From NCBI GenBank assembly GCA_934133195.1, contig CAKPAZ010000004.1, positions 3,564 through 67,563 of the forward strand: 64,000 nucleotides of DNA, read 5' to 3'. Source of the stretch: an uncultured Bacilli bacterium (GTDB lineage: Bacteria; Bacillota_I; Bacilli_A; ML615J-28; CAG-313). The position numbers and the translations under genes were made by a program. Positions 10,170 to 30,195 of this stretch are shown here, one piece after another (position 1 is the first letter of the stretch; each line of letters opens with the position of its first letter). Below the pieces are notes generated by a model. That model had not been told where the DNA came from, made no database searches, and saw nothing but the letters and a program-made list of their open reading frames with translations.

Positions 10170-10245
10170 GCACCCTTAGCTCAGTTGGTAGAGCAACTGA
10201 CTCTTAATCAGTGGGTCCAGGGTTCGAGTCCCTGAGGGTGTACCA
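10170..10245 (+). tRNA. tRNA-Lys (anticodon CTT)
   Basis: GCACCCTTAGCTCAGTTGGTAGAGCAACTGACTCTTAATCAGTGGGTCCAGGGTTCGAGTCCCTGAGGGTGTACCA. Canonical D and T arms, anticodon loop CTCTTAA, and encoded CCA. Confidence 0.9.
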
Positions 10246-11678: not shown

Positions 11679-12506
11679 ATGAATACTAATTATGCCGCAA
11701 TAATTATGGATGTAATACAATCTAGAAAATACGATGAACAAGAAAGATTTAATATCCAAGAAAAATTATATAAAATAATTAAATTTATTAATAATTGTTA
11801 TAAAAATGAAATAGTTAAAGATTATGATTTTTCAGCAGGTGATTCTATCCAAGCCTTATTTAATAATGTAAGTGATGCTTTTAGTAGTTATTGTTTAATC
11901 AAAACTTTATTTTATCCATATAAAATTAGATGTGGTATCGGTTATGGACCCCTTAATCAAAAAATATTAGATGTAAATTATAACAACACTAACATGTTAG
12001 ATGGAGAAGCATATCACTATGCAATATCAGCTTTAAATGATTGTAAAGAAAAGAAATATAATTTTTTATTATATTCAAATAAAAATGAAAGTGATAATTT
12101 AGTTAATCAAATAATGAGTACAGTTGAAATCTTTACTTCAGAACATTCAACTAAACAAGCAGATGTTTTTGAACTATTTAACTTATTATATCCTTTAGAA
12201 AATAAAAATTCATTTAAAATAATTGATGAAAATATAGATTTTATCATTACAATGATAAAACAAAATATTCAATCTTATGAATTAGATGATTTAACACTGG
12301 TTAAACACGTATTATTAGATGATTTTAAGAATGATGCCAATACATCTAATTTTCCCACAAGAATAAATTCAATCTGTGCCCAGTTATTAAATGTAAGTAG
12401 ACAAAACATTGAAAAGATAAGAACTGTAGGCTTTTTTGATAAAATTAGAATACTAGAAAAATTAGTATTGGATTATATGAGAAATGAATATAAGGAGAGA
12501 GAATAG
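11679..12506 (+). CDS. SatD-like protein (tentative)
   Basis: N-terminal AAIIMDVIQSRKYDEQER resembles the IIGDIxxSR start of the SatD family. It is immediately followed by a DUF3307-like membrane protein, which is the usual SatD partner. Confidence 0.35.
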   Translation: MNTNYAAIIMDVIQSRKYDEQERFNIQEKLYKIIKFINNCYKNEIVKDYDFSAGDSIQALFNNVSDAFSSYCLIKTLFYPYKIRCGIGYGPLNQKILDVNYNNTNMLDGEAYHYAISALNDCKEKKYNFLLYSNKNESDNLVNQIMSTVEIFTSEHSTKQADVFELFNLLYPLENKNSFKIIDENIDFIITMIKQNIQSYELDDLTLVKHVLLDDFKNDANTSNFPTRINSICAQLLNVSRQNIEKIRTVGFFDKIRILEKLVLDYMRNEYKERE

Positions 12507-13235
12507 ATGACAGTATTTAAATTATTATTGATTGCTCACTTGTTTGGTGATTATTATTTCCAACCAACTTGCTTAGTTGAGAAAAAGAAGAATAGTATAA
12601 AAGAATTAATTATTCATGTTTTGATTTATACTTTATTTATTTTTCTAGTATTATTACTATTTGGTAATGTATGGGAGATTATAATTTGGTCAGTTATTGT
12701 GTTTGCAACACACTTTTTGATTGATTACATTAGAGTTAAATTAACAAAGAAATATAATGAATGTGTTTCATTTTGGAGTTTTATTGTTGATCAAATACTA
12801 CATATAGCTATAATCTTTATAATTTCATTAATTATTAAAGATGATTTGAATTCTATTGGAAGTGCTATTCACAATATTTCGTTTTTTAAAGATATTAATT
12901 TTAATAAAGTTATTACTTACTCTTTAGCATTTCTAATCATCTTAGCACCTGCGTCAGTATTTATCAAACATCTTTTTAATTATGTTTTCAATAAAAAAGG
13001 AATATGTGAAAATGTTGATTCCGATAATGTGGGATCACTAATTGGTTGGCTTGAAAGAGTAGTAATCTTACTACTTGGTATTCTTGGCATGTATGGCTCA
13101 ATTGCTTTAGTTTTAACTGCGAAGTCTCTCGCAAGATTTAAACAGTTGGAAAATAAAGAGTTTGCTGAGAAATATTTAGTGGGTACCTTAATAAGTTTAG
13201 TAATTGCCTTATTAACACTACTAATCATCAAATAA
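12507..13235 (+). CDS. DUF3307-like polytopic membrane protein (SatE-like partner)
   Basis: N-terminal HLFGDYYFQ (the HxxGDxxxQ signature). Multiple TM helices. Its start abuts the stop of the upstream gene. Confidence 0.4.
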   Translation: MTVFKLLLIAHLFGDYYFQPTCLVEKKKNSIKELIIHVLIYTLFIFLVLLLFGNVWEIIIWSVIVFATHFLIDYIRVKLTKKYNECVSFWSFIVDQILHIAIIFIISLIIKDDLNSIGSAIHNISFFKDINFNKVITYSLAFLIILAPASVFIKHLFNYVFNKKGICENVDSDNVGSLIGWLERVVILLLGILGMYGSIALVLTAKSLARFKQLENKEFAEKYLVGTLISLVIALLTLLIIK

Positions 13236-13746
13236 GATCTTAACATATAGATGGGAGATGAATAAATGATATAAAAGTTATATATGAAACTATAATTAAT
13301 AATTTTATTCGCGTAAGATAAAATGTTCAAATTCAATAAATCTATATATTTTCATATAAAATAATAATATTAAATGCCTGTGTTTTACCAATGATTATAA
13401 TTTTGGATATTTCCACATAATTAATTTAAATTTATAAGAAATGAAAAATACGATGAATATTTTGTTTTAATTTTATTACCAAGACAGATATGTCATTACA
13501 ACTGTTGTATTAACTTGTAGTAAAAAAGTAATTTTAAAATTGTTAAAAAATAATTATTAAACAGCTTTTTAAATAAGTAATATTATAAGTAAGTTTACAA
13601 GAAATATTTAATAATTAATAGAACATTAAGAAAAAAAGATTTGATTGAAATAATAGGATCTAATAAAATTGGTTATTGAAAAGTTAAAGACGTTAAAAAT
13701 AAACTAACACAATTAATAAAATAAGAAAAATAAGTAGGAGAAACAT

Positions 13747-15060
13747 ATGAAAAGAAATATATTAGAATTATACTACAATTATGAAGCAATAAATGAAAGC
13801 ATAAATTTCATTGCTCCATTAATTATAGAACGTAAAAATAAATTAAAAAGAAAACTAGATGATACCAAACAATTTTATGATATTGTTAAAAAAATTAGTG
13901 ATGTTATCAGGGAATTTAAGCCGACTGATGAACTTAATGAAAATGAAATTAAGGAAATTAATATAAAAATAACAAATAAATTATTAGATTTAGGATTAGC
14001 TACTATTAATGAAAATAATGAATTTACATTTAATATAAAGGAAGATATTGAACCGGTTAAAAATATAGATGAAGTAATAGATTCTTTAAGAGCAAGTAAT
14101 AGAAATAAAAGATTCTTATTTAATAATGCTGTTGTAAACTGTGTTACATCTTATGAACAATTTGTTGGATTTCTATTTAAAAGTTTTTATTTTCAAAATT
14201 CAAATTGTGTGTGTAAAAAAGCTTTAACATTTGAAGAATTGAAAGAAATTGGTTCAGTAGAAGAGGCAAAAAATTATTTAATTAATAGAGAAATTAAAGA
14301 TTTAATGTATGGTAGCATTGATGACTGGCAAAAACATTTCAAAAATAATATTAAAATTAAAATAAATCATTATGAAAACAACATAAAAGAAATTAATGAG
14401 ATATTTTTACGAAGAAATTTAATAGTGCATAATAGTTCAATCGTTAATTCCATTTATTTAAAGGAAATTGGAAATAGCGATTATAAAATAGATGACCCAA
14501 TAGAAAGTTCAACTGAATATATTAATAATGTTCAAAAGTTGTTGTTTGTAAACGCATTTTATTTAGGAATATTTTGTATTGATAAAATGGGTTACTCCAA
14601 GGATGAGAAACTAGAAATTGCAAATACTTTTTCTTTTATAGCATTTAATATGATGAAAAATGGAAAGTGGGAGCAAGCAAAAATAATATATTCAATAATC
14701 AAAGAATTTGAATTATTTTCTAAAGAAGTGAAAGAAATGCACAATATTAATTATTTATTATGCCGCGTTAATTTAAATGAAGATAATATTTATGAAGAAA
14801 TAGAAAAAATTGATTTTAGTGACAAATCAAATTTCTTAAAAATGGGATATTTTGCTCTAATGTTGAAAAAGGATGAATTAATTGAAACAATTAAATTAAT
14901 GGGAACTGAGGTCCGTACAGACATGATAAATGAGTGGCCAGTTTTTTTTAGAGTAAGAGAAGATAAGAAATATTATAATAAAGTTATAAAAGTAATTAAT
15001 CAAAAGCATGATGAAAATAAAGACTTGATAAAAATTAATTTAGGTGGTAATAAAAGCTAA
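13747..15060 (+). CDS. Hypothetical protein with a HEPN-like RNxxxH motif (Abi-like)
   Basis: 437 aa. Contains FLRRNLIVHNSS (Rx4-6H, as in AbiD/F, AbiU2 and LsoA-type HEPN RNases). RBS aggaga. Confidence 0.35.
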   Translation: MKRNILELYYNYEAINESINFIAPLIIERKNKLKRKLDDTKQFYDIVKKISDVIREFKPTDELNENEIKEINIKITNKLLDLGLATINENNEFTFNIKEDIEPVKNIDEVIDSLRASNRNKRFLFNNAVVNCVTSYEQFVGFLFKSFYFQNSNCVCKKALTFEELKEIGSVEEAKNYLINREIKDLMYGSIDDWQKHFKNNIKIKINHYENNIKEINEIFLRRNLIVHNSSIVNSIYLKEIGNSDYKIDDPIESSTEYINNVQKLLFVNAFYLGIFCIDKMGYSKDEKLEIANTFSFIAFNMMKNGKWEQAKIIYSIIKEFELFSKEVKEMHNINYLLCRVNLNEDNIYEEIEKIDFSDKSNFLKMGYFALMLKKDELIETIKLMGTEVRTDMINEWPVFFRVREDKKYYNKVIKVINQKHDENKDLIKINLGGNKS

Positions 15061-15123
15061 AAATTAGTAAAAAAGTATCTAATATATATAGCTTTGAAAA
15101 ATTAAAAACTTGGGAGAAAAAAT

Positions 15124-15684
15124 ATGATTGAAATAGAAGAATTTGAATACCTATCAAAAAAATATACACCTTATATTAATAGTTTGATTGAGAAAAATAA
15201 AAAGTTTTATAAATTGAACTCACCTATAAAATGGCAATTCGGTTTTAATGAAAAATTAGCTTTTTTTGCATGGTCAGATAAAAATACTAATTTGATTACA
15301 CTAAACATTGCATCTGTTGATTATTCAATTCAAAATAATCAAAATTTATTAGTTGAGTTGTTTTTATTACACGAAATGAGACATGTATATCAATATCAGG
15401 AAGCTGAATTATATATTAGTAATCCTTTGATATGTGAAAACATAGAAATGGCTAAAAAATGGTATTACGAATTTCAAGAATATGTTCCCGCTTCAGATAA
15501 TAATAAAAATTTTAACTATTATTTACAGGAATCGGAAAAAGATGCATTTGTTTATTCCTATGCAATAATTATGTATAAGTATGGAAAAGTAGAATACTTA
15601 AATATTCCAAAAGCATATGAAGGACCTAAAATTAAAAAAGAAATTAATAATTTAATGGTCATGTTCAAAAATAAAAAACTATAG
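15124..15684 (+). CDS. Small zincin-like metallopeptidase (HExxH)
   Basis: LLHEMRHVYQ HExxH motif, with a downstream Glu (YLQESEKDAF) as a possible third ligand. 186 aa. RBS ggagaaaa. Confidence 0.45.
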   Translation: MIEIEEFEYLSKKYTPYINSLIEKNKKFYKLNSPIKWQFGFNEKLAFFAWSDKNTNLITLNIASVDYSIQNNQNLLVELFLLHEMRHVYQYQEAELYISNPLICENIEMAKKWYYEFQEYVPASDNNKNFNYYLQESEKDAFVYSYAIIMYKYGKVEYLNIPKAYEGPKIKKEINNLMVMFKNKKL

Positions 15685-15827
15685 TGTTAATAGTTAAGAA
15701 TATGACATTACTTATAATGTTGTACAAACAATTTACTGTAATAATAAAATTTAATAAATATATTTAGTTTAATAATGAAATTTAACAATCATAAATCTAT
15801 TATTAAATTACAATATTTTAAGAAAGG

Positions 15828-17165
15828 ATGAGAAATTTGGAACATAATAATAACAATATTTATTTTATAGATAAATTATTAGAGGATAATTTTTACTCAA
15901 AAATAGTTGATAATTATATTCCTTGTATTATTGAAAAAGGAAATCTTCAGGATAATAATAGTGATTTATATATAAAAACTATTTTAGCATCTCAAACGAA
16001 GGATATAGAAAAAACATGGATGATTAACAATTTAGTACACTCTGCATCAAACGATGTATTTAATTGTATAGTTAGTTATAATTATAAATTCAATACGCTA
16101 TATGGAATTAATCCATTTCTTATGGATGATTATAGTACTGTGTTTGTAGAACAGAAAAATTTATATGTTTTGGATATGGTATATAATGATTCTGGAACAA
16201 TAAATAAACCTGCTATATTGAAAAATGAAAATAATAATATTTACATTTATTATGACGTTTTAAAAGAAAAACTTCAAAAAAATGCATTTTCTAATAACTA
16301 TAAAATGTATGCAGAAATAGAATATAGAGAATATGTAGATCAATTTTATATGAATAAACAAATCGAAAAGATTAATAATGGATATATTGACGTACAATGT
16401 TTTAAAGAAGATGATGGTAAGAACATCTTATGGATACGAGCAACCATTGAAATTGATGTTGATCGTTTACTAGATAAAATATGCACAAAAAGAAAATTCG
16501 AAAATTTAAATATTAAAGTTGTAGAGTTAGAAAGCGGTAAAATTAGAGATCTAAATACTAATAATTATGATGATGATATTAGTGCTGGACTCATTGTATT
16601 TAAGAAAGAGGCATATCAAGTATTATCAAAATATTATTATTTTTATGATATGATGTTAGTATCGAAAAACAATGAATTAGATTTATGTTTAATTGATAAT
16701 CTAGAAGATTGTTTTGTGTTTTGGGAAGGAGAATTCAATAGCAAGATACCTATTGAAATAAAAAGAGAATTAGCAAAATACAACGATAAAAATAGAAAGG
16801 TAGGAATAATTAGTAAAGGAATGTATGAATGGCAATTGAATGCTAATTGGAACTATATAGATGATGCATTACCTAATGAAAAATTAGCTAGTTACATTAG
16901 AAATAACTATTTAGCACAAGCTTTGGAAATTGGGTTAGATTTTTACCCTCCGAAAAGTAATGAAGAATATGGTGATTTTGTTAATTTAATATTTAAAATA
17001 CTTAAAATTTCATATAAAGATTTAAAAATTTCAAATGAAAAAATAGAATTATTAGAAAAAATAAGAAATAAGTCTGAAGTTTTTGCAAATCAAGATTTAT
17101 TATATAAAAACTACCAAGGTTTTTGTAATCTAATTAATAGGGTTGTTGAAAATGCAAATAACTAG
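15828..17165 (+). CDS. Hypothetical 445-aa protein, translationally coupled to the downstream OLD-like nuclease
   Basis: RBS aaaggatgag. Its 3' end overlaps the next ORF by 23 nt. No known motif. Confidence 0.5.
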   Translation: MRNLEHNNNNIYFIDKLLEDNFYSKIVDNYIPCIIEKGNLQDNNSDLYIKTILASQTKDIEKTWMINNLVHSASNDVFNCIVSYNYKFNTLYGINPFLMDDYSTVFVEQKNLYVLDMVYNDSGTINKPAILKNENNNIYIYYDVLKEKLQKNAFSNNYKMYAEIEYREYVDQFYMNKQIEKINNGYIDVQCFKEDDGKNILWIRATIEIDVDRLLDKICTKRKFENLNIKVVELESGKIRDLNTNNYDDDISAGLIVFKKEAYQVLSKYYYFYDMMLVSKNNELDLCLIDNLEDCFVFWEGEFNSKIPIEIKRELAKYNDKNRKVGIISKGMYEWQLNANWNYIDDALPNEKLASYIRNNYLAQALEIGLDFYPPKSNEEYGDFVNLIFKILKISYKDLKISNEKIELLEKIRNKSEVFANQDLLYKNYQGFCNLINRVVENANN

Positions 17166-18426
17166 AGATGAATTCTTGAATAGTATTAAAACATCTAACT
17201 CTTCGTTATTTTGTATAGTTGGCCCTAATTATTCTGGAAAAACATATTTATTAAAAAATTTTTTTGAAAACTATATCACAATTGGTGGATTACTTATAGA
17301 TGAAACAGGTAAAGTAAGAAGAAAAGTTGCTACTGACGAAATTTTTATTTCAAGTGACAATAATTATTATATTTATCAGGATAAAAAGCAAAGAGGTAAA
17401 GATCATACTGCTAATGGCTCAAAAGTTGCACTTGATGAAGCATCAAAGGAAATAATAAAGGTTGTAAAAAAATACAAAGATAGAATTATCAATTTTTTAC
17501 AAAATGGAAAGCCTGAATCTCTTGGGATATCAAAAATAATGAATATAATAAATATTTTATTATCAACTAACTTAAACAATATATCCTATGTTATTATTGA
17601 TGAACCTGAAAATTCATTAGATGATAATAATCTTAAAATAGTGATAGAATTTATAAACACATTAATTTTATTCAAAAAGAAAGTAGTAATTGTTACTCAT
17701 AGTCCAAGATTACTTGAGCTAATGAAAGTAGAAGTTGATAATATATATAAAGTTAATGATCTAATGGGAAAAATACAAAATTTAAAGTTTACAGATGTTG
17801 AAAAGATCTATATTGATTGTGGTAGTGAATTAAAAGAAGTACCTGGCTATAAAAGCCTTTATATTTCTGATATAATTCAATTCAACGCTGGCGAAATTTT
17901 TCGTAATTTATATATTAATTACGTTCTAAAATCACAAGATTTTTATAGGGTATTATTCTACAATGATGTAGTATTAATGGAAGGCAAAACTGAAGAATTT
18001 ATTATTAGAGAGACAAAATATTCAAAAAAATACTCAAAAAATGTGTATTATATGGAGGGAAAATATAAAGCTTATTTTTTAATTGAGTTGTTTAGTAATT
18101 ATTGTAATCAAGTTAATTGTTTTATGGATAGGGATAAAAAAAGCAAACTAGATGATAATAATAATTTTTCTTATCAAATGAATGATACTTTTAAAAGAAA
18201 ATACAATAATAATTTAAAAGTCAAAATTTTTTACTTCAATAATAATATTGAAGATGAACTTGGTGTTGACATAAATGAGGTAATGATAGATTTTGTGGGT
18301 GAAGAAAATAAAAATAATAAACGATGCAAAAAAAATTTAAAACCATTTATTTCATTGAGGTACTTACAAAAACATCCAGAATGCATCGAAAATCTTGATT
18401 CACTAACAAATGAATTTAATTTTTAA
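17143..18426 (+). CDS. Compact OLD-family protein: ABC-type ATPase fused to a TOPRIM nuclease
   Basis: Walker A GPNYSGKT, signature-like SLGISKIM, Walker B YVIIDEPENSLDD and H-loop VTHSP. C-terminal TOPRIM VVLMEGKTEE ... FMDRDKK (E plus DxD). Confidence 0.6.
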   Translation: MLKMQITRDEFLNSIKTSNSSLFCIVGPNYSGKTYLLKNFFENYITIGGLLIDETGKVRRKVATDEIFISSDNNYYIYQDKKQRGKDHTANGSKVALDEASKEIIKVVKKYKDRIINFLQNGKPESLGISKIMNIINILLSTNLNNISYVIIDEPENSLDDNNLKIVIEFINTLILFKKKVVIVTHSPRLLELMKVEVDNIYKVNDLMGKIQNLKFTDVEKIYIDCGSELKEVPGYKSLYISDIIQFNAGEIFRNLYINYVLKSQDFYRVLFYNDVVLMEGKTEEFIIRETKYSKKYSKNVYYMEGKYKAYFLIELFSNYCNQVNCFMDRDKKSKLDDNNNFSYQMNDTFKRKYNNNLKVKIFYFNNNIEDELGVDINEVMIDFVGEENKNNKRCKKNLKPFISLRYLQKHPECIENLDSLTNEFNF

Positions 18427-18571
18427 ATTAATTTGTAATTTTAAATGCAACAAAATTAAGGTTAATTAGTTAAATAATCTTCATAATGATTCTTAAACTC
18501 TAAAGCCTAAATGATTTTAAAGATTGTGGTTCTATGAAATATTTTGACCCCCAACAAATTTATATAATCAT

Positions 18572-18884
18572 TAATAATATAAAATATTTTGCTCTCTATT
18601 TTTCTTATTAGAATTTATAATTTTAAATCTAAAAAAATCAAAATCGGAATATCCAAATCCGATTTTTTTTATTGTTTTACAAAAATTATTCTTACCTTCG
18701 ATAGAACCGTTAGATAATCTTTTATGTGTTACTGGATCCATGATAAAAGAGTTTGTAATTTCATTAATCCATGATTTATAAGTTAATGTAGTCTTTTTAA
18801 ATTCAATTTTAATTAAAACAAGATTTTTGCCTTGAATATTTAGTAAAATTATATAAAGAATTAGATAATTAATATAGAGTTACG
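18572..18884 (-). pseudogene. C-terminal remnant of an ISL3-family transposase
   Basis: The minus-strand translation ...PVTHKRLSNGSIEGKNNFCKTIKKIGFGYSDFDFFRFKIIN matches the conserved ISL3 C-terminus (NGxIEGxNNKIKxxKRxxYGYRNFxxFRxRIL). There is no start codon or N-terminal part. Confidence 0.5.
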
Positions 18885-19189
18885 CGTTATTACTTACCAT
18901 AACTCTTTTTTTACCATAAAAGCACAAAAGCATAAAATATTTTATAGAACCATTAAACCTCATAAGTAAATAAGGTGATTCATTAAGGCTTTTTTAATAC
19001 ATCCGATAACTCATTTTATAGTGTAATTTTCCAAATATTGTAAAATTTGAAATATTAATTATTATGGCATAAGATAATTTGTTAAAAATAGCAAAATCTT
19101 GCAATAATTTATGTATTATGATAAAATTTTATATGAACATATCAAAAAATATATTCACTTTAAAAAATTTTATTATAGGAGCGAGAAAA

Positions 19190-20083
19190 ATGACAATAAA
19201 ATTTGAATCTTTTTTTAAATTTGAACATCCAGAAAAAATTAAAGTTAAATTTAATATGACATCTGGTCGTGGTGGTGATAGAGCGTGGGACAATTTACGA
19301 GATGATGATGGAAATTATCAACGTAATGATAATAAGTGGTATAATATGAATGCTCATAGAAGTGAAACAGGACAATCAAACAACAATCTTGAACATTATG
19401 AATATGTTTTATCCTTTGCACAATATTATCCATATGGCCATGAATTTTATATATTTGGTGGATTATATAAAAAAACGGGTATTAGAAGTAATGACAAATA
19501 TGAATTAGAGTTACAAGATGACTATATAGAATATAGAAACAGATTAATTATTAAGTTAGAAAAATCAATTGGAAGAAATCTTTATTTAGTAAAGTTTAAA
19601 ACTGTGTGTAACAAAATGAATGCTGTCATTTATGAGATCAGACCAGAAGGAAAACTTTCAGTTTTTCCAGGATATAATAATGTTAGATTAACGCATAAAG
19701 AACTACAAAGTATTATCAATGGTAAGGAGATGGAATGGAAAAATGCATTGTCAGTGGTAAAAGGCGTTTACTGTATAACTGATACTTCAACAGGAAAAAT
19801 CTACATAGGCTCAGCTTATGGTAATACCAATGGTATATGGCAACGATGGTCATCATATGCTAATATTAAAAATCTCACAGGTGGTAATAAATATTTTGAA
19901 TTACTAAAAAAAGAATGTGAATCATACATTATTGACAACTTTCAATATTCAATTTTAGAAATCATGGATTTTAAGACGGATAAGAATGAAATTATTCGAA
20001 GAGAAGAGTATTGGAAAAAAGTATTCAAAAGCGTAGAATATGGAATGAATGAAGCTAGAAAAAATGTTGATGAATATTTATAA
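19190..20083 (+). CDS. GIY-YIG nuclease-domain protein with an unknown N-terminal domain
   Basis: The likely start is ATG 19190, with an RBS aggagcgag. The C-terminus has GVYCITDTSTGKIYIGSAYG...WQRWSSY...NKYFELL...E...EEYW, the GIY-YIG motifs. Confidence 0.6.
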   Translation: MTIKFESFFKFEHPEKIKVKFNMTSGRGGDRAWDNLRDDDGNYQRNDNKWYNMNAHRSETGQSNNNLEHYEYVLSFAQYYPYGHEFYIFGGLYKKTGIRSNDKYELELQDDYIEYRNRLIIKLEKSIGRNLYLVKFKTVCNKMNAVIYEIRPEGKLSVFPGYNNVRLTHKELQSIINGKEMEWKNALSVVKGVYCITDTSTGKIYIGSAYGNTNGIWQRWSSYANIKNLTGGNKYFELLKKECESYIIDNFQYSILEIMDFKTDKNEIIRREEYWKKVFKSVEYGMNEARKNVDEYL

Positions 20084-20111
20084 TTATTAAAATATAAATA
20101 CTAATTATTCA

Positions 20112-20146
20112 AAAGACCTTCACAGGAAAGGCCTTTTATTTTTAAA
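20112..20146 (+). terminator. Probable terminator
   Basis: aaagaccttcacaggaaaggcctttt followed by ATTTTT. Confidence 0.4.
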
Positions 20147-20316
20147 TATTTGTAATATTTTTTAAAATAAAAACATTCGTTATATAAAAAATAAATAAAA
20201 GTATTAAAAGAAAATTGAAATTAACATAATATTAGATAGATATAATTTGAATTTTTTAAAATTATATGATAAAATCATATCATAAAAATAAAATGTATAA
20301 ATGAGGATTGAGAATT

Positions 20317-21336
20317 ATGAATGAAAAAATTATGAAAGCACTAGAAGCATGTAATAAAGTTTTAGAGGGCTTGGAAAATGAAACTCTTTCTATTTCATCT
20401 GCTTTAATGTTATGCTTGAAAATTGCTAGACTTACAAATGATGAAAATAATTTAAGTTGGTTAATGTATGAAAGTAGCGGTTATGCTAAAATTGATAATG
20501 ATAATCTTTTGCCAGAAGCTTTTGAAATCGCAAAAAAGCATGGAAGAAATTATATAATAGATGACAAAGAGTATGTGTTTACTGAATTAGTTCCAGAACT
20601 AGAATCAAAGATTGAATGTGCAAAAATGCAAACTAATAACTTTACAACTAATGGTGCATCTACCTCTGGTAATTATGCTATGGGAGCGATGCACAGATTA
20701 ACTGAATCTGTTGCTTCGGAAAATAAAAAATTGTTAACTATAATGACTAGTTCGAGAAAAAAATTAATGATATTAGCAAGCCAATTTTATGATTATGCAC
20801 TAAAAAAATCTATTGAAATAACATTTGGGAACGTTTCGCAAACGATTTTTGAATCTTATAGAGAAACTGTTAATGGATACTTAAATGATGTTTCAAAAGA
20901 TACACTAATGAAATTGCAAGCAATTGATGAAGGATTGCAAACTAACAATAAAGAAACGTATTCACAAATTTTAACTACATGCAGAAGATTATTTCAAGAA
21001 TTGGTAAAAAATTTATTCAAAAGAGTTTTGCCTGAGTTCCAAGACGATCAGTTTAAAACTAAAAGTGGTAAATTCATAGATGTAAGTGGTGAACACTACA
21101 AAAATAAACTTTCAGCAATAATTGAGACTTTGGAAGACAAAACATTAAATAAATCACTTGTTGGTACTAGCATATTATATTACATGGACTGGATTGATAA
21201 CTTAACTTCACTTCAATCCAAAGGAGTACATAATGATATTTCTCTAGAAGAAGCAAGAAGTTGTATTATTCAAACTTACATTTTTGCTGGTGAAATCATT
21301 AAGTTATATGAAAACAATTTTAAAAATATTGATTGA
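20317..21336 (+). CDS. Hypothetical protein (340 aa)
   Basis: ATG 20317 with gagg 10 nt upstream. The ORF track used TTG 20308. No motif recognised. Confidence 0.5.
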   Translation: MNEKIMKALEACNKVLEGLENETLSISSALMLCLKIARLTNDENNLSWLMYESSGYAKIDNDNLLPEAFEIAKKHGRNYIIDDKEYVFTELVPELESKIECAKMQTNNFTTNGASTSGNYAMGAMHRLTESVASENKKLLTIMTSSRKKLMILASQFYDYALKKSIEITFGNVSQTIFESYRETVNGYLNDVSKDTLMKLQAIDEGLQTNNKETYSQILTTCRRLFQELVKNLFKRVLPEFQDDQFKTKSGKFIDVSGEHYKNKLSAIIETLEDKTLNKSLVGTSILYYMDWIDNLTSLQSKGVHNDISLEEARSCIIQTYIFAGEIIKLYENNFKNID

Positions 21337-22865: not shown

Positions 22866-25178
22866 ATGACAGAAGAAGAAGTAAAACTAAATTATATAAC
22901 ACCCGCGATTGAACATGCAGGATGGAAAAAAAGCCAAATTAGAATGGAATATTCAATAAATGATGGGAAAATAATTATTAGAGAAAATGTCACAAAAAGG
23001 TTGCCAAAGAAAAAAGCTGATTATGTTTTATTCTATAAAACAGATTTACCACTAGCAATAGTAGAAGCAAAAGATGATAAACATGTAGTTGGTGATGGAA
23101 TGTTACAAGCTCAAGAGTATGCAAAAAAATTAGATGTTAGATTTGTTTTTACATCTAATGGTAATGGATTTTTATTTTATGATATGAAAACTGGAGAACA
23201 AAAGATATATAACTTAGATGATTTTCCTTCCCCTGAAACTTTGTATAAAATTCAGTTTGAAGAAGAGTTTAAAAAGAATAAAAATTTAGAAAAAATCATT
23301 GATACACCATATTATTATGGAGTTGAATCACTTACACCCAGATATTATCAGCGTATTGCAATAAATAGAACTGTTGAGGCAATTGCAAAAGGTAGCGAGA
23401 GAATTTTACTTGTTATGGCTACTGGGACAGGAAAAACATACATGGCTTTTCAGATTATTTGGAGGCTTTGGAAATCTGGCCTTAAAAAGAAAATTTTATA
23501 TCTTGCAGATAGAAATATTTTAATAGATCAGACAATAATCGGTGATTTTAAACCATTTAAAAATTTTATGACTAAAATTTTTCATAAAAAGATGGATACA
23601 TCATATGAAATATATTTGTCACTTTACCAACAACTTTCTGAAAATGAGACGGATGATACATTAGCTTTATTAAAAGAAAATTTTAATTCGGATTTTTTTG
23701 ATTTAATAATAGTCGATGAATGTCATAGAGGTAGTGCTAGAGAAGACTCAAATTGGAGAAAAATATTAGATTATTTTGATAAAGCAAGTAAAATCGGTAT
23801 GACAGCAACCCCTAAAGAAACTAGAGAAATATCAAATATTGATTATTTTGGTGAACCAATTTATACATACTCTTTAAAAGATGGTATTGAAGATGGATTT
23901 CTTGCCCCTTATAGGGTAATCAGATACGCCCTAGATACTGATATATATGGGTATAGACCTGAAAAAGGTAAACTTGATATTGATGGAAATATTGTTGATG
24001 ATAGAGAGTATAATATAAATGATTTTGATAAAAATCTTATAATTGACGAAAGAACTCAATTAGTTGCCAAAAAAATTACGGAATTTCTTAAAAGCACCGA
24101 TCGATTTGCAAAAACAATTGTATTTTGCGTGGATGTAGACCATGCTGAAAGAATGAGACAAGCACTAGTTGAACTTAATTCAGATCTTTGTGCTGAAGAT
24201 CATAGATATATAGTTCGTATCACTGGTGATAATGAAGAAGGAAAAAAACAACTTGATTATTTTATTGATAATGATAGTATTTATCCAACTATAGTTACAA
24301 CCAGTAAATTATTAACGACTGGAGTAAATTGCCAAACATGTAAAATTATTGTTTTAGATAACATATTTGGTGAAAATGGAATGACGGAATTTAAACAAAT
24401 TATTGGTAGAGGTACAAGAATCAAAGAAGATTATGGTAAATTATATTTTACAATTTTAGACTTTAGAAATGCTACAAGATTATTTGCTGATCCAACTTTT
24501 AATGGTCCAGAAGAACAAGTAGAAGATTATGATCCAAATAGATTAAAAAAAATTAAAAATAAAAATATAATAGAATCTGATGAAGAAGAAAATAATGAGA
24601 TAAATAATAATACAAATGTAAAAAAAATTAGAGTTAACAATGTTGATGTAATGCTTATTGCAGAAAGAGTTCAATATTATGATTGTGATGGTAAACTAAT
24701 AACAGAAAACTTAAAAGATTACACGAGAAAAAATATTTTACACGATTATGCATCTTTGAGTGATTTCTTAAATTTATGGAATAGTGAAAAAAAGCGAGAA
24801 GTCATTATAGAAGAACTTAATACTAAAGGTATTTTTATAGAAGAACTTAGAAAATTTTATCCGACTGATGTAGATGATTTCGATTTAATATGTGATATAG
24901 CATATGGATTAAAACCACTGACAAGAAAAGATAGAATTAAACGTTCTAAGGTTGTAGATATATTAAATAGATATTCTGAGGAATGCAAAAAAGTTCTTGA
25001 GATTATTCTTGAAAAATATTCAAATGATGAAATTGATGAATTAACGGATTCAAAAATTTTAAAATTACCTGACTTTAACGATTATGGTAATCCCATGAAA
25101 ATTGCAAATTTATTTGGAGGGCGTAATAATTATTTAAATGCAGTTCGTCAAATACAAAATGCACTATATGTAGCGTAA
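22866..25178 (+). CDS. hsdR: Type I restriction enzyme R subunit
   Basis: HsdR_N start MTEEEVKLNYITPAIEHAGW, Walker A MATGTGKT, DEAH box IVDECHRGSA, and a helicase C-terminal domain. Confidence 0.9.
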   Translation: MTEEEVKLNYITPAIEHAGWKKSQIRMEYSINDGKIIIRENVTKRLPKKKADYVLFYKTDLPLAIVEAKDDKHVVGDGMLQAQEYAKKLDVRFVFTSNGNGFLFYDMKTGEQKIYNLDDFPSPETLYKIQFEEEFKKNKNLEKIIDTPYYYGVESLTPRYYQRIAINRTVEAIAKGSERILLVMATGTGKTYMAFQIIWRLWKSGLKKKILYLADRNILIDQTIIGDFKPFKNFMTKIFHKKMDTSYEIYLSLYQQLSENETDDTLALLKENFNSDFFDLIIVDECHRGSAREDSNWRKILDYFDKASKIGMTATPKETREISNIDYFGEPIYTYSLKDGIEDGFLAPYRVIRYALDTDIYGYRPEKGKLDIDGNIVDDREYNINDFDKNLIIDERTQLVAKKITEFLKSTDRFAKTIVFCVDVDHAERMRQALVELNSDLCAEDHRYIVRITGDNEEGKKQLDYFIDNDSIYPTIVTTSKLLTTGVNCQTCKIIVLDNIFGENGMTEFKQIIGRGTRIKEDYGKLYFTILDFRNATRLFADPTFNGPEEQVEDYDPNRLKKIKNKNIIESDEEENNEINNNTNVKKIRVNNVDVMLIAERVQYYDCDGKLITENLKDYTRKNILHDYASLSDFLNLWNSEKKREVIIEELNTKGIFIEELRKFYPTDVDDFDLICDIAYGLKPLTRKDRIKRSKVVDILNRYSEECKKVLEIILEKYSNDEIDELTDSKILKLPDFNDYGNPMKIANLFGGRNNYLNAVRQIQNALYVA

Positions 25179-25193
25179 AGGAGGATTAAAATT

Positions 25194-26663
25194 ATGGCAG
25201 TTACAAATTTAGTAAAAAGAATACAAGATATTATGAGAAATGACGCTGGCGTTGATGGTGATGCACAACGAATTAGTCAAATGACGTGGATGTTTTTCTT
25301 AAAAGTTTATGATGCTAAGGAAGAAGAATGGGAATTTTATGATGAAAATTATCAAAGTTTAATTCCTAATGAGCTAAAATGGAGAAATTGGGCAATAGAT
25401 GACCATAGTAATAATGTAATTACCGGTGAAAAACTATTAGATTTAGTTAATAATAAACTATTTCCTACTTTAAAAAATCTTGAGATAACCCCAGAAACAC
25501 CGCTAAAGCAACGCATTGCAAAATATGTTTTCGAAGATGCACAAAATTATATGAAAGATGGTGTTTTACTTAGACAGGTAATTAATGTAATAAATGAAGT
25601 TGATTTTTCTGAATATAAAGAAAGACATGAATTTGGTGCAATTTATGAAACAATTTTAAAAAGCTTACAAAGTGCTGGAAATGCTGGTGAATTTTATACG
25701 CCGCGTGCTGTTACAGATTTTATGGTTCAGATGATAAAGCCAAAACTTGGTGAGTCTGTCGCAGATTTTGCATGTGGTACAGGTGGATTTTTAACTTCAA
25801 CTTTAAAATATCTTGAGCCACAAAAAAAATCTACAGAGGATGTTGACAAATATAACAACACAATTTATGGAATTGAAAAAAAGCCAATGCCTTATTTACT
25901 TTGTATAACAAATATGTTAATACATGATGTTGATGAACCTAAAATTTATCACATGAATTCCTTAGAAAAAAATGTAAGAGATTACAAAGAAGAAGATAAA
26001 TTTGATATTATTTTAATGAATCCACCTTACGGAGGATCAGAAAAAGAAGCTGTTAAGAATAATTTTCCTGCAGATTTAAGAAGTAGTGAAACAGCAGATT
26101 TATTCATGAATGTTATCATGTATCGTTTAAAGAAAAATGGTCGTTGTGCTGTAATTATTCCAGATGGCTTTCTATTTGGAGAAGATAACGCAAAAGTTGC
26201 TATTAAGAAGAAACTATTAAATGAATTTAATTTACACACAATCATAAGAATGCCACATAGTGTTTTTGCTCCGTATACTTCCATAACGACTAATATATTA
26301 TTTTTTGATAATACTAAATCAACTGATGAAACATGGATATATCGTATGGACATGCCTGAGGGATATAAAAATTTTTCAAAAAATAAACCTATAATGCTAG
26401 AACATTTTGCTCCTGCTATTGAATGGTGGAATAATAGAAAAGAATTAATAATTGACGAATTTCCTAAAGCAAAGAAATATACAAAAGAAGATATTATAAA
26501 ATTAAATTATAATTTAGATTTATGTGGTTATCCACATATTGAAGAAGAAATTTTAGAACCAAAAGATTTAATCCATCAATTTAAAGAGCGAAGAGATTCT
26601 TATAACGCGGAGATTGAGAGAACACTGGCAAAAATATTGGAGATTTTAGATGAAGACAATTAA
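25194..26663 (+). CDS. hsdM: Type I R-M N6-adenine DNA methyltransferase M subunit
   Basis: HsdM_N (RISQMTWMFFLKV), SAM-binding DFACGTGGFL, and catalytic NPPYGG. Confidence 0.9.
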   Translation: MAVTNLVKRIQDIMRNDAGVDGDAQRISQMTWMFFLKVYDAKEEEWEFYDENYQSLIPNELKWRNWAIDDHSNNVITGEKLLDLVNNKLFPTLKNLEITPETPLKQRIAKYVFEDAQNYMKDGVLLRQVINVINEVDFSEYKERHEFGAIYETILKSLQSAGNAGEFYTPRAVTDFMVQMIKPKLGESVADFACGTGGFLTSTLKYLEPQKKSTEDVDKYNNTIYGIEKKPMPYLLCITNMLIHDVDEPKIYHMNSLEKNVRDYKEEDKFDIILMNPPYGGSEKEAVKNNFPADLRSSETADLFMNVIMYRLKKNGRCAVIIPDGFLFGEDNAKVAIKKKLLNEFNLHTIIRMPHSVFAPYTSITTNILFFDNTKSTDETWIYRMDMPEGYKNFSKNKPIMLEHFAPAIEWWNNRKELIIDEFPKAKKYTKEDIIKLNYNLDLCGYPHIEEEILEPKDLIHQFKERRDSYNAEIERTLAKILEILDEDN

Positions 26664-28221
26664 AAATTTAACTGCAAATGAATTAAGAAAATCAATTCTT
26701 CAATTAGCTATTCAAGGGAAACTTGTAAAACAAGATCCAAATGATGAGCCGGCCAGTGAGCTTGTCAAAAAAATTTATGAAGAAAAAAAGAAATTAATTG
26801 AAGAAGGTAAAATAAAAAAAGACAAAACAGAATCAATTATTTTTAAAGGTGATGATAATTGTTATTATGAGAAGATAGGTAATAATGATCCTATAAAACT
26901 TGAGGATTTACCTTTTGATATTCCTGATAATTGGATGTGGATACGACTTAAGAATTCTTCAATATTAAATGGTGGTTATGCATTCAAAAGTGATAAATTT
27001 TCTAAAGAAGGAGTTAGAGTGATCCGTATATCTGATTTCAATGAAAATGGAATTCTTAATAAGGATATTAAACGCTATCCATATTCAATAGAATTAGAAC
27101 AATATAAAATTTTAGAGAAAGATATTTTATTATGTATGACTGGTGGTACAGTTGGAAAATCTGTATATATTAATTCACTTAATGAAGATTCATATATAAA
27201 TCAACGTGTTGCATTAATACGTATATTTAAAATATTATCTAAATATTTTTATGTATATTTAGTGTCACCGAATACTGCCGATATAATTAATAAAAATAAA
27301 AATAGTACAAATGATAATATCTCCATGAAATTAATTGAAGACTTTCTAATTCCACTACCACCATTAGAAGAACAACAACGTATTGTAGATAAGATTAATT
27401 CATTTGAACCATTATTAGAAAAATATGAAAAAATAGAAAAAGAATTATCAAAACTAGAAAAAGAGTTTCCTGAAAAACTTAAAAAATCCATTTTACAATA
27501 TGCTATTGAAGGGAAACTAGTTAAGCAAGATCCTAACGATGAACCTGCTTCAGTCTTACTTGAACGAATAAAACAAGAGAAAGAAAGACTAATTAAAGAA
27601 GGTAAAATTAAGCGTGACAAGTATGAATCATACATCTATCAAGGTGATGATAAAAATTATTATGAGAAGATCTGTAATACGGTTAATAATATTGAAATTC
27701 CATTTGAAATTCCAAACAAATGGATATGGATTAAATCACATCAGATAATGAAACCAGTTCAATACGGATATAATGGCCCAGGTTTATCAAACGGGAAATT
27801 TAAATTATTAAGAATAAGTGATATTCAAAATGGTAATGTCAATTGGAAAACACTACCATATTGCAATATTTCTGAACAACAAGTAAATATTTATCAGATT
27901 CAAAAAAATGATATTTATATTGCAAGAACTGGTGGAACAATAGGTAAATCATTTAGACTAGCTGTAGATATGCCTAATGTTGTTTTTGCGGGATATTTAA
28001 TTAGATTTTCTTTTATCGAACAAAGAATAAGTAAATATATTAATTTGTTTCTAAATACACCTTTATATTGGAATCAGGTTGCAGATAAATCTGCAGGTAC
28101 TGGTCAACCTAATATTAACGGTGTATCATTAAGTAACTTATTAGTTCCGATACCTTCTTATAATGAACAAGAACGTATTCTAAATAAAATCAATTATTTA
28201 TTTCAAAAAATAGATTGTTAA
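26650..28221 (+). CDS. hsdS: Type I R-M specificity subunit, the expressed copy
   Basis: Two TRDs separated by a conserved central coiled-coil region (LKKSILQYAIEGKLVKQDPNDEPASVLLERIKQEKERLIKEGKIK) that duplicates the N-terminal conserved region. It overlaps the hsdM stop. Confidence 0.85.
   Translation: MKTIKNLTANELRKSILQLAIQGKLVKQDPNDEPASELVKKIYEEKKKLIEEGKIKKDKTESIIFKGDDNCYYEKIGNNDPIKLEDLPFDIPDNWMWIRLKNSSILNGGYAFKSDKFSKEGVRVIRISDFNENGILNKDIKRYPYSIELEQYKILEKDILLCMTGGTVGKSVYINSLNEDSYINQRVALIRIFKILSKYFYVYLVSPNTADIINKNKNSTNDNISMKLIEDFLIPLPPLEEQQRIVDKINSFEPLLEKYEKIEKELSKLEKEFPEKLKKSILQYAIEGKLVKQDPNDEPASVLLERIKQEKERLIKEGKIKRDKYESYIYQGDDKNYYEKICNTVNNIEIPFEIPNKWIWIKSHQIMKPVQYGYNGPGLSNGKFKLLRISDIQNGNVNWKTLPYCNISEQQVNIYQIQKNDIYIARTGGTIGKSFRLAVDMPNVVFAGYLIRFSFIEQRISKYINLFLNTPLYWNQVADKSAGTGQPNINGVSLSNLLVPIPSYNEQERILNKINYLFQKIDC
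26860..26892. repeat. IR-A, left copy (33 nt perfect), in the 5' conserved region of hsdS
   Basis: tgttattatgagaagataggtaataatgatcct. Its exact reverse complement occurs at 31439..31471, with extended similarity to about 26960 and 31370. Confidence 0.8.
27541..27617. repeat. IR-B, left copy (77 nt perfect), in the central conserved region of hsdS
   Basis: gaacctgcttcagtcttacttgaacgaataaaacaagagaaagaaagactaattaaagaaggtaaaattaagcgtga. Its exact reverse complement occurs at 30699..30775, with about 90% identity over about 160 nt. Confidence 0.85.
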
Positions 28222-28794
28222 CCTTTTTAACAATTTTATGTTGTTCTGATAAAGGAGGAATTGGTATCGCATAGTTCATTATAACTTTAGGATATAATTC
28301 TATTTGATTTGTACTACCTTCATACCTTTCTTCAACATAATCAAAAATTATAGGTGATCTTAAATATAAGTATACATATTCTGGATTAATTTCTTTTTGA
28401 ATTAATCGAATTGTTGTTATATGTGAATCATAAACAATAATATTGTGATTGGAAAAAGACTTTATTTTAAGATATTAACTCTTCCAACAGTTCCTGTACC
28501 AGTTGAATTGATTATAATATCATTTATGTTAGAAATTTGCTGTGCATTATAACTAATAAATGATAATCCATCTATATATAAAGCTTTATTTAATGATAAT
28601 ATTCCGTCTTTTTGATTGCATTTTTGTGCAATTACGGGAATTGTTTTATTAACAGAATATTTAGGAGATTTTCCTCGCTTGATAAATTCTGAAATATTAA
28701 TTAATTTTGTGATTTTCCATCCAATTGGAATTGAATAATCTTTTAATTTAGATAGAAACATCTTATAATAATTTATATATAAAAAAGACTTCAA
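28190..28794 (-). pseudogene. Silent, disrupted hsdS cassette (alternative TRD) convergent on the hsdS 3' end
   Basis: The minus-strand translation gives a TRD (…GKSPKYSVNKT…STGTGTVGRVNILK), an in-frame stop near 28462, then in another frame …EINPEYVYLYLRSPII…IPIPPLSEQHKIVKK. The 3' end overlaps the hsdS 3' end. There is no start or promoter. Confidence 0.5.
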
Positions 28795-28822
28795 TGAATT
28801 TAAGTGTTCATTGAAGTCTTTT
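28782..28822. terminator. Hairpin terminator downstream of the recombinase gene
   Basis: aaaagacttcaatgaa-ttta-agtgttcattgaagtcttttt. Confidence 0.5.
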
Positions 28823-28825
28823 TGA

Positions 28826-29629
28826 TTACCAAGTTACTATTTCATCAACTAATTTTTGTTGTTCACTTGCAGTTTTTCTAAGATATATTCGTGTTGTTTC
28901 AATAGATTCATGTCCCATTAAATCTGCTAATAAAGATATATCATTATATTTCTCTAAAAAATTCTTTGCAAATCTATGTCTAAACGAATGGGGATATACA
29001 ACTTTAGGATCTATACCATATTTAATTGCATAGTTCTTTAATTGTTGAGAAATTCCTCTAGTTGTAATTCTTTCTCCAAATCTATTAAGAAAGATATATC
29101 CAGATTCAATCTCTAAATCATTTTCTATCCATTTAATTGTTTCTTTTCTTAAAGCAAGTGGAATATAAATTCTTCTAACCTTTCCACCTTTAGAATAGAT
29201 ATCTATATAACCAACTTTTACATGTTCAACTTTTATTTTAATTAATTCGCTAATTCTAGCACCAGTTGCACATAAGAATCTAACTATGAAATACCATTCG
29301 ATATTAGGTTCTTTTTTTAATTTTTTCTTAAAAAAAACGTAATCAGCATCACTAATTACGTTTTCAAGGAACATTTTTTGTTGCACCTTTATAGATTTGA
29401 GCCTTAAATTATCTTTTCCGATAAATTCCAAATACTTATTCATAGCTTGAATTTTAAGATTAACAGATTTAGCCTTAAAATTTTCTATTAAATAAGTTTT
29501 CCATAGAAGTAAATATTTCTTATTTACTTCATCAAATAATTCTTTGTATCCCTGTATAGCAATTAAATAAGCGGATACTGTGTTCTTAGCAAGATTTTTT
29601 GCTAATAAAAACTGTTTAAATTTTTCCAT
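28826..29629 (-). CDS. Tyrosine site-specific recombinase (XerC/D-like), probably the shufflon invertase
   Basis: ATGARISE (Arg), HSFRHRFA (HxxR), and GHESIETTRIYL (catalytic Tyr). Embedded between hsdS cassettes. Confidence 0.85.
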   Translation of the reverse strand: MEKFKQFLLAKNLAKNTVSAYLIAIQGYKELFDEVNKKYLLLWKTYLIENFKAKSVNLKIQAMNKYLEFIGKDNLRLKSIKVQQKMFLENVISDADYVFFKKKLKKEPNIEWYFIVRFLCATGARISELIKIKVEHVKVGYIDIYSKGGKVRRIYIPLALRKETIKWIENDLEIESGYIFLNRFGERITTRGISQQLKNYAIKYGIDPKVVYPHSFRHRFAKNFLEKYNDISLLADLMGHESIETTRIYLRKTASEQQKLVDEIVTW

Positions 29630-29696
29630 TAATTTTACCTCCTTATGGACGATAAAATTATATCATTTAATTATTAATTTTCTTTTTATGAACACA

Positions 29697-30195
29697 ATAT
29701 AAAAATTATTATGAGAATTTACCAATCGGCTGGGTCAAATGTTGTTTATCAAATGTAGCTAAAATTATTATGGGACAATCTCCTAATGGTAATACTTATG
29801 GTAATATTGGAACTGAATTCCATCAAGGTAAAATGTTTTTTACTGATAGAATAATTGGAATTTCTAATGTCAAAACTTCAACTCCAATCAAAGTCACCTC
29901 AAAATATTCGCTAGTTATGTCAGTTAGAGCTCCTGTTGGAGATGTAAATTATTGTAATAGAGAAATATGCATAGGTCGTGGATTGTGTTCAATTGAATGT
30001 TTTGTACCAGAACTAACTGATTATCTTTATATTATATTGAAAGCAAATAGTAAGTTTTTTAAGGATAAATCGACTGGGACAACATTTAAAGCGATAAATA
30101 TGGATGTTATAGCATCATTACCAATATTACTTCCTCCATTGAATGAACAAAAAAGTATAGCAAGTAAAATTAATAAAATAAATATGTATTTATAG
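29697..30195 (+). pseudogene. Silent hsdS fragment (alternative C-terminal TRD) in direct orientation
   Basis: It begins with aaaaattattatgaga (the DKNYYE junction repeat). It encodes a TRD ending LLPPLNEQKSIASKINKINMYL, resembling the hsdS C-terminus. It lacks an upstream conserved region and start context. Confidence 0.5.

Follow-up and report, generated by a model that had tools for sequence, protein, structure and literature searches.

A central question for nucleases of the OLD family is how their ATPase licenses the nuclease. This question is raised by two overlapping genes in a stretch of 64,000 nucleotides (nt) from an uncultured Bacilli bacterium (contig CAKPAZ010000004.1). The whole stretch is called the window in the following, and its positions are used unless a different locus is named. 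The downstream open reading frame, ORF2, encodes a small protein with an ABC-type ATPase and a TOPRIM nuclease domain, and the upstream ORF1 encodes a protein of 445 amino acids (aa) without a recognisable domain. Does the pair belong to one of the known OLD systems, and what could the upstream protein contribute? Our results support the view that the pair is an undescribed, partner-dependent and insert-less OLD variant. They thereby support the proposal of an undescribed OLD-associated pair in a first-pass annotation, which had been made from the letters of the DNA; the defence function that was part of this proposal would follow by analogy.

Two overlapping genes conserved as a pair

The pair and its parts are located as follows.

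15828..17165, plus strand: ORF1, 445 aa, ATG start (ORF list and translation)
15828..16502, plus strand: N-terminal half of ORF1, residues 1-225
16503..17162, plus strand: C-terminal half of ORF1, a separable module, residues 226-445
17139-17142, plus strand: AGGG, Shine-Dalgarno-like element within ORF1
17152..17165, plus strand: overlap of the ORF2 start and the ORF1 stop, 14 nt; the ORF1 stop codon is TAG at 17163-17165
17152..18426, plus strand: ORF2, 424 aa, small OLD-family ABC-ATPase/TOPRIM protein
17221..17244, plus strand: Walker A motif (P-loop) GPNYSGKT of ORF2, residues 24-31
17518..17622, plus strand: ABC signature-like SLG (S123-L-G125), then the Walker B/D-loop IIDEPENSLDD (D150, E151 ... 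D157, D158)
17695..17709, plus strand: H-loop T182-H183-S-P-R186, invariant
17953..18423, plus strand: TOPRIM domain and C-terminal helices, residues 268-424, placed by conservation, secondary structure and PF20469

Both reading frames and all motifs named in the first-pass annotation (GPNYSGKT, IIDEPENSLDD, VTHSP, LMEGKTEE and FMDRD) were found in the translations. The overlap that it had described also exists, but its length of 23 nt and the 427 aa of ORF2 had to be corrected to 14 nt and 424 aa. The longer version starts with a TTG at 17143 (17143-18426 in the ORF list), immediately 3' of the AGGG element. Because the ATG at 17152 lies 9 nt past this element and lines up with the initiator methionine of all ORF2 homologues, and because public gene calls contain the exact 424-aa sequence and not the 427-aa version, ORF2 was assigned to 17152-18426, and the ATG at 17152 is most likely its true start. 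For ORF1, the alignment of homologues supports the ATG at 15828, and an in-frame TTG at 15837 may be an alternative start. Terminator-like sites were not found around the pair, and promoter-like sites were no commoner there than in shuffled sequence.

Searches among 5.8 billion clusters revealed 16 clusters of ORF1 homologues (33-64% identity) and 9 clusters of ORF2 homologues (34-64% identity); in all searches taken together, the identities ranged from 19 to 65% for both proteins. Because such homologues exist, ORF1 and ORF2 are, as judged by sequence comparison, real conserved genes and neither is a chance ORF.

Loci with the pair were collected via ORF1 (the window, L001-3, L010-16, L023) and via ORF2 (L024-L029). 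Irrespective of the gene through which a locus had been found, homologues of both genes were adjacent and in the same order in 18 out of 18 cases, and thus the partner is co-conserved, as had been proposed. The coding regions overlapped by 8-23 nt in all 11 loci that were measured, and in these a GGAGG- or AGG-type element usually preceded the ORF2 start; in Bacillus mycoides the two genes abut without a gap. ORF1 is probably co-translated with ORF2. The matrices of pairwise identities of ORF1 and of ORF2 across the loci were correlated with r = 0.97, down to identities of 23-30%, and the flanking genes beyond the pair were otherwise unrelated between loci.

The hosts include metagenome-assembled genomes (MAGs) of Clostridia, Bacilli and Mycoplasmatota, a MAG of Methanobacteriaceae, and a conjugative plasmid of B. 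mycoides JAS391. On the plasmid of this cultured strain (NZ_CP036104.1), the pair (94579-97143; WP_235713539.1 and WP_002191940.1) is situated beside insertion sequence (IS) elements, and the two proteins are named 'hypothetical protein' and 'TOPRIM nucleotidyl transferase/hydrolase domain-containing protein' in RefSeq. A phage origin of the pair was rejected, as no match was found in 50,697 phage genomes and only one short contig in IMG/VR.

Several loci deviate from the common arrangement. In L025 (1651-3011), two ORFs of 68 aa and 387 aa make up the split ORF1 homologue next to an intact OLD gene. The split could reflect a pseudogene or an assembly error and, if real, would represent a natural ORF1-null state. 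In one subclade, a third conserved gene of about 120-140 aa overlaps the stop codon of the OLD gene (L012 10545-10937, L013 10545-10937, L015 10549-10908, L016 9265-9636 and L011 6320-6742). Its products share 49-62% identity and have no Pfam match, and the pair of this subclade lies inside Type I restriction-modification (R-M) operons; the window does not contain the third gene. Both proteins of L016, from a Methanobacteriaceae gut MAG, are about 75% identical to those of L012, from a MAG of Firmicutes CAG:321, which might be explained by a recent transfer between domains or by faulty binning.

ORF2 is a member of the OLD superfamily without the dimerisation insert

The conservation of motifs was judged in a family alignment of 10-12 ORF2 homologues. 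In the ATPase domain, G24, P25, N26, G29 and K30 of the Walker A motif, the signature-like S123-L-G125, and the Walker B/D-loop D150-E-P-E-N-x-L-D-D158 are invariant. In the TOPRIM domain, this is true for E277 and E281 (ExxxE), for G303-K304 after the second beta-strand, and for D326-x-D328, E367 and K397. This pattern parallels the two-metal site and the lysine of the OLD protein of Burkholderia pseudomallei (BpOLD; E400, E404, D455, D457, E508 and K562); E281, E367 and K397 are in the same order as E404, E508 and K562, a comparison made by sequence order alone.

In Pfam, ORF2 matched AAA_21 with an E-value of 1.3e-7 (32.4 bits, cut-off 27 bits). Residues 268-328 matched the OLD-like_TOPRIM family PF20469 with 8.4e-4 and 20.3 bits, just under the cut-off of 23.2 bits, and five ORF2 homologues from other loci reached 23.8-35.1 bits, above this gathering threshold. 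An AlphaFold2 model of ORF2 (predicted local distance difference test score, pLDDT, 84.8; predicted template modelling score, pTM, 0.83) contained an ABC-type domain and, after it, four strands that alternate with helices in the manner of TOPRIM domains. The best match of this model in a Foldseek search of the PDB was the OLD protein of Thermus scotoductus (TsOLD, 6p74; E 8.4e-9). Ranks 1-6 and 10 were occupied by TsOLD, the OLD protein of retron-Eco8 (9lpa_B) and GajA (8jq9, 8sm3 and 8u7i), with E-values from 8e-9 to 3.4e-4. The OLD proteins outranked most nucleotide-binding domains of transporters, which filled most of the other ranks. The template modelling scores with the OLD proteins were only 0.32-0.40, because the insert is missing and the domain arrangement is different.

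Together, fold and catalytic motifs establish ORF2 as a member of the OLD superfamily and not of a transporter-type ABC family, in agreement with the first-pass annotation. The latter had, however, equated the architecture with those of OLD, GajA, AriB and RloB. The comparison with OLD and GajA was correct, but that with AriB and RloB was loose, as both are TOPRIM-only proteins and not ATPase-TOPRIM fusions. Because the catalytic residues of both domains are strictly conserved, ORF2 is very probably an active ATP-regulated nuclease.

ORF2 had also been described as a miniaturised protein without a long insert. This is true and could be made more specific. TsOLD consists of 525 aa, with an ATPase region of residues 1-369 and a Toprim region of 156 aa, and a four-helix dimerisation domain is inserted between strands beta8 and beta9 of its ATPase. 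ORF2 is about 100 aa shorter. The TOPRIM regions of both proteins are equal in size (about 155 aa), whereas the distance from the Walker A lysine to the H-loop histidine is 153 residues in ORF2 (K30-H183) versus 276 residues in TsOLD (K34-H310), i.e. 123 residues less. Measured by motif spacing, the entire length deficit of ORF2 thus sits in the span of the ATPase that holds the OLD dimerisation insert. Neither the motif spacing nor the model revealed a helical dimerisation domain in the ORF2 ATPase, and a single helix of 22 residues (96-117) precedes the signature motif. The location of the deficit matters because the insert builds the auto-inhibited dimers or tetramers of TsOLD, GajA and P2 Old.

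ORF1 represents a new family with a portable C-terminal module

For ORF1, no match was obtained in Pfam, PADLOC, NCBIfam, PHROGs or the sequences of the PDB, neither with the single sequence nor with a profile, confirming that it has no recognisable domain. A profile search among 1.84 billion representatives yielded 99 relatives, about 35 of which were full-length, and when 37 divergent members of this long form were scanned singly with E-values up to 10, no family recurred. ORF1 is thus a new family. Its AlphaFold2 model is confident but multi-domain (pLDDT 86.9, pTM 0.59) and comprises a beta-rich N-terminal half (residues 1-225), an alpha/beta region and a helical C-terminal region.

The profile search (alignment A4) also detected proteins of about 218-222 aa that match only positions 226-441 of the ORF1 profile. 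In every locus with enough sequence (L004, L006-9, L017-21), the gene for this short form is located directly upstream of a gene for a protein of 1250-1500 aa, with the two genes abutting or overlapping by 1-14 nt. The large proteins contain an N-terminal Cap4-type nuclease domain with an invariant D..QxK and a STAND NTPase (PADLOC Avs1b, 3.5e-14; Pfam Cap4_nuclease, NPHP3_N and AAA_22), and sequences of the PDB did not match the giant STAND protein. A second large-database search, with a profile of the short form, retrieved essentially two architectures only, of about 220 aa and about 445 aa; the exceptions were two proteins annotated with a further Pfam domain, and truncated fragments. Hence, the C-terminal half of ORF1 is a portable module, common to the OLD pair and to accessory proteins of Cap4-STAND (Avs-like) NTPases. 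The N-terminal half, in contrast, was seen only in the long form that is paired with the small OLD protein.

Both halves contain highly conserved residues. K50 and N79 in the N-terminal half are invariant and W64, N68 and E165 are nearly invariant. In the C-terminal half of the long form, D290, E300, N304, S329 and Q336 are nearly invariant, and the eight residues of the motif VFWEGEFN do not vary among the closer long forms. The short form has an invariant equivalent of D290 and near-invariant E300, S329 and P375, and the same is true when both forms are taken together. In the model, a strand of a beta-hairpin carries D290, the following strand has E300 at its end, and a helix with K312 comes next.

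Several candidate identities of ORF1 were considered and rejected. A Cap4/PD-(D/E)xK nuclease was rejected for the C-terminal half, as its hhalign comparison with the Cap4 domains of the neighbouring STAND proteins yielded a probability of 0.1% and the fold-search lists did not contain any nuclease. A weak profile match of 'ID...fEG.YN' to CE-clan (Ulp1/ChlaDUB) proteases was not significant (E 0.35), and this assignment was also dropped because the ORF1 family lacks a conserved histidine or cysteine. The effector-associated domain EAD11 was detected in 1 of the 37 long-form members (E 0.051) and not again in the short forms, and the STAND partners do not have a copy of the ORF1 module; a homotypic adaptor function is therefore not supported. 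The two halves of ORF1 contain look-alike pairs of motifs, 'NPxLxDD ... EIEYR' (88-167) and 'LNxxNYDDD ... EGEFN' (236-304). However, an internal duplication was not supported by the hhalign comparison of the two halves (E 0.18, probability 0.3%, not significant).

The genes upstream of the short-form/STAND pairs are variable; they could act in defence on their own or be exchangeable third components. They encode a SIR2_2 protein in L004 (258-1613), a Metallophos protein in L020 (5704-6956), and a 446-aa protein without a known family in L017-19 (L017 5624-6964). The latter was considered as a counterpart of the N-terminal half of ORF1, and a profile search did not yield a match.

The pair does not fit any of the known OLD classes

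The first-pass annotation had stated that none of three known OLD classes has a partner of this kind. The statement holds, but five classes are now distinguished, including the split PARIS system (class 4) and the archaeal Cran1 (class 5). The defining feature of each of the classes 1-5 fails for the pair, and a text search of the literature did not reveal a paper describing a class beyond class 5. In a recent OLD phylogeny, 11 uncharacterised clades (U1-U11) were defined (PMC12796447), and ORF2 may fall in one of them.

Class 1 proteins such as P2 Old and TsOLD (6P74) resemble ORF2 most closely in structure, TsOLD being the best match, and, as judged by the order of the residues in the sequence, have the pattern of E, ExxxE, DxD, distal E and Lys in common with it. 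However, their genes stand alone, whereas the ORF2 family has an upstream ORF1 homologue in all 18 loci. Their ABC signature is degenerate, whereas ORF2 retains the invariant SLG, and TsOLD has the four-helix insert in an ATPase span that is 123 residues shorter in ORF2.

Gabija (class 2) is also encoded by two genes, for a fused ATPase-TOPRIM protein and an obligate regulating partner, and GajA was among the top structural matches of ORF2 and had a weak PADLOC match to about 70 residues around the Walker B motif. However, ORF2 is about 150 aa shorter than GajA, and the partner GajB is a UvrD-like helicase, whereas ORF1 is located upstream and has no helicase, P-loop or known domain. A helicase partner was not found in ORF1 by Pfam or PADLOC, and the space downstream of the pair is filled by a remnant of an ISL3 element and by UzuA. 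The OLD proteins of retrons (class 3) are accompanied by an adjacent reverse transcriptase (RT) and an msr/msd non-coding RNA. None of the ten flanking proteins scanned contained an RT domain, and retron-like or other non-coding RNAs were not found with Rfam in the region 13000-21000 around the pair at E-values up to 1.

PARIS (class 4) also combines an ABC ATPase and a TOPRIM domain in a two-gene defence module that is released by a phage trigger, and its ATPase AriA had a weak PADLOC match to ORF2 (4.6e-9). In PARIS, however, AriA and the TOPRIM/DUF4435 protein AriB are separate, while here both domains are fused in the 424 aa of ORF2 and the second gene is unrelated. Cran1 (class 5) is a vertically inherited gene of Sulfolobales with a membrane-protein neighbour, whereas the pair has a patchy, mostly bacterial distribution. 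A membrane-protein family was not recognised in ORF1, which has no Pfam match and is modelled as mixed strands and helices; a dedicated transmembrane prediction was not made.

Two further systems were compared. HEC-04/IbfA is likewise a compact fused ABC-TOPRIM defence protein found on plasmids, but it is encoded by a single gene and, with 518 aa, is about 95 aa longer than the paired ORF2. ORF2 had no match to HEC-04 in PADLOC, and matches to HEC-01A, HEC-02A and HEC-02B covered the ATPase segment only. Avap2 (DUF6375) of KpAvs2 is a small accessory protein beside an Avs-type STAND NTPase, and the short forms of about 220 aa are placed alike. It binds the NTPase and is essential for defence by KpAvs2. 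However, the partner of Avap2 is Avs2, while the STAND partners of the short form have a Cap4-nuclease, Avs3/Avs7-like layout, and the long form has an OLD protein. The Avap2/DUF6375 family PF19902 was not matched by any of 37 long-form or 28 short-form members at E-values up to 10, and none of these 28 short-form members matched a Pfam family.

In the whole of PADLOC-DB v2.0.0, no system was matched by both proteins. ORF1 had 0 matches, and the matches of ORF2 were partial, covering about 50-110 residues around the Walker B motif (PtuA, AriA, GajA, AbiLi, HEC-01A, PDC-M56A and others). PADLOC, the RefSeq names of the JAS391 proteins and the literature search thus agree that the pair is not a known annotated system.

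Possible function of the pair

On balance, we lean towards the view that the pair is a two-subunit OLD-type anti-phage system, with ORF1 as sensor of the trigger, as scaffold for the nuclease, or as both. Where OLD systems have been characterised, their ABC domain governs the TOPRIM domain through oligomeric state or conformation, and infection is sensed by a partner or the ATPase (GajB in Gabija, RT and its multicopy single-stranded DNA, msDNA, in retron-Eco8, AriA in PARIS, and DNA structures in P2 Old). By analogy, ORF2 would be an ATP-gated effector. Its ABC domain would probably form head-to-head dimers that enclose ATP, and it would control the putative two-metal TOPRIM nuclease. ORF1, which would be supplied in stoichiometric amounts via translational coupling, would take over the functions of the lost dimerisation insert. 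Its C-terminal module would dock onto and scaffold the NTPase-nuclease and license it, a task that we assign to this module because this part of ORF1 also occurs in the Avs-like context, and the beta-rich N-terminal half, specific to the long form, would be the domain that confers specificity for the infection signal. Once activated, the nuclease would cut nucleic acid, either DNA as for Gabija and retron-Eco8 or tRNA as for PARIS and P2 Old, and halt the infection abortively; both substrates are documented for OLD-type TOPRIM domains, and the sequence cannot tell them apart. Because ORF2 has lost the dimerisation element and gained an obligate co-evolving partner, scaffolding or licensing together with trigger recognition is the most economical model for ORF1. 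Regulatory partners of this kind have precedents, among OLD proteins in GajB, AriA and the retron RT/msDNA, and for KpAvs2 in Avap2. The analysis itself shows the gene structure, the conserved catalytic residues, the OLD-like fold, the lack of the length taken up by the insert, the co-occurrence and co-divergence of the two proteins, the defence-island setting and the second use of the C-terminal module beside Cap4-STAND NTPases, whereas we infer that ORF1 and ORF2 form a complex, that ORF1 is the sensor, what the substrate is and that the phenotype is defence.

Several points weigh against it. The complex itself is conjectural, and as the same module accompanies two unrelated NTPases, the module may do without direct contact to either of them. 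The assignment to defence is based on guilt by association, and one OLD class, Cran1, is not defensive. Furthermore, the near-invariant polar set of D290, E300, N304, S329 and Q336 resembles an enzyme active site, which would favour an enzymatic over a purely adaptor ORF1. This leads to the main rival explanation, to which we attach a minor but real probability, namely that ORF1 itself is an enzyme, e.g. a metal-dependent hydrolase or nuclease or a nucleotide-modifying enzyme, and acts as a second effector or makes or destroys a signal. D290 is invariant and the other four residues nearly so across the long and short forms, VFWEGEFN does not vary among the closer members, and the modelled geometry of D290, E300 and K312 recalls PD-(D/E)xK sites.

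It is unlikely, but would be compatible with the gene order, that ORF1 acts as an inhibitor in the manner of an antitoxin and that the pair serves mainly as a toxin-antitoxin or addiction module, in which the loss or degradation of ORF1 frees the toxicity of the OLD nuclease. The partner gene comes first, the nuclease gene second, and the coding regions overlap; the pair is carried by mobile islands and, next to IS elements, by a conjugative plasmid; and P2 Old and PARIS have been reported to be toxic once freed from inhibition. Since an inhibitor can also be a sensor, this explanation overlaps with the sensor-scaffold model as a variant of it. A non-immune role in repair, replication or chromosome maintenance, similar to that of Cran1, or a class 1-like ORF2 that acts alone next to an unrelated ORF1, appears very improbable. 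Cran1 does show that OLD proteins can have a housekeeping function with a conserved non-defence neighbour, and a phenotype of the pair is not on record. However, the pair is rare and patchy, with the 16 and 9 clusters among 5.8 billion; its hosts range from Clostridia, Bacilli and Mycoplasmatota to a methanogen MAG, it is also carried by a plasmid, and the pairs of a Firmicutes MAG and the archaeal MAG share 75% identity; and its surroundings are low-GC islands with R-M, Abi, HEPN and Dnd genes. This rarity, horizontal spread and defence context make a non-defence role unlikely, and the independence of the two genes is contradicted by the synteny in 18 of 18 loci, the coding overlap and the co-divergence with r = 0.97.

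If the sensor-scaffold model is true, a natural insert-less OLD protein with a separate co-evolving partner would be a clean system for splitting scaffolding and sensing from catalysis. The occurrence of the same module beside Avs-like STAND receptors suggests a reusable accessory part across two immune machineries that are usually treated apart, and it would offer a way into the accessory proteins of bacterial NLRs, which are poorly understood. The idea is directly testable because a cultured host exists, B. mycoides JAS391 with its conjugative plasmid.

Genomic setting

The first-pass annotation had placed the pair in a defence island between Abi-like genes and R-M systems, and both family scans and the contrast in GC content corroborated this. 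The GC content of the island is 22-28%, compared with 30-35% in the flanks, and the island begins after a tRNA-Lys(CTT) gene (10170-10245). Upstream of the pair, the family scans identified DUF4238, SatD/DUF3307 and a HEPN RiboL-PSP protein, and downstream of it UzuA, AbiTii, an MrcB_N/NOV_C protein (PDC-S36), a Type I R-M system and AbiL. The Type I R-M region (22866-31366) has the layout of a phase-variable specificity shufflon and consists of the following genes.

22866-25178: hsdR of the Type I R-M system
25194-26663: hsdM
26650-28221: hsdS
28826-29629, minus strand: tyrosine recombinase, 3' of the Type I R-M genes
29770-30195: extra hsdS fragment, after the tyrosine recombinase
30170-31366, minus strand: extra hsdS fragment

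The island contains a second two-gene module with an ABC ATPase, the overlapping genes 31664-33043 and 33031-33759 on the plus strand. The 459-aa protein encoded by the first gene matched AbiLi in PADLOC (1.3e-31) and the 242-aa protein encoded by the second weakly matched AbiLii (2.9e-3). The module is thus a known AbiL system, unrelated to ORF1; the 242-aa protein was considered as a relative of ORF1 and rejected, as BLASTP did not reveal any similarity.

Directly upstream of the pair, two genes on the plus strand encode the HEPN RiboL-PSP protein of 437 aa (13747-15060) and a protein of 186 aa without a family match (15124-15684). They may form a separate two-gene module and are not kept beside the pair in other loci. 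The gap of 650 nt past ORF2 contains an ORF of 56 aa (18571-18741, minus strand), which is a C-terminal remnant of an ISL3-family transposase (PF01610, 7.7e-8) and marks a place between the OLD pair and UzuA where an element was once inserted and then decayed. The SatD/DUF3307 gene pair is found near the OLD pair both in the window (11679-13235) and in L002 (9662-11388), on opposite sides, with identities of 58% and 51% between the two loci; it could be a recurrent island neighbour or reflect common island ancestry.

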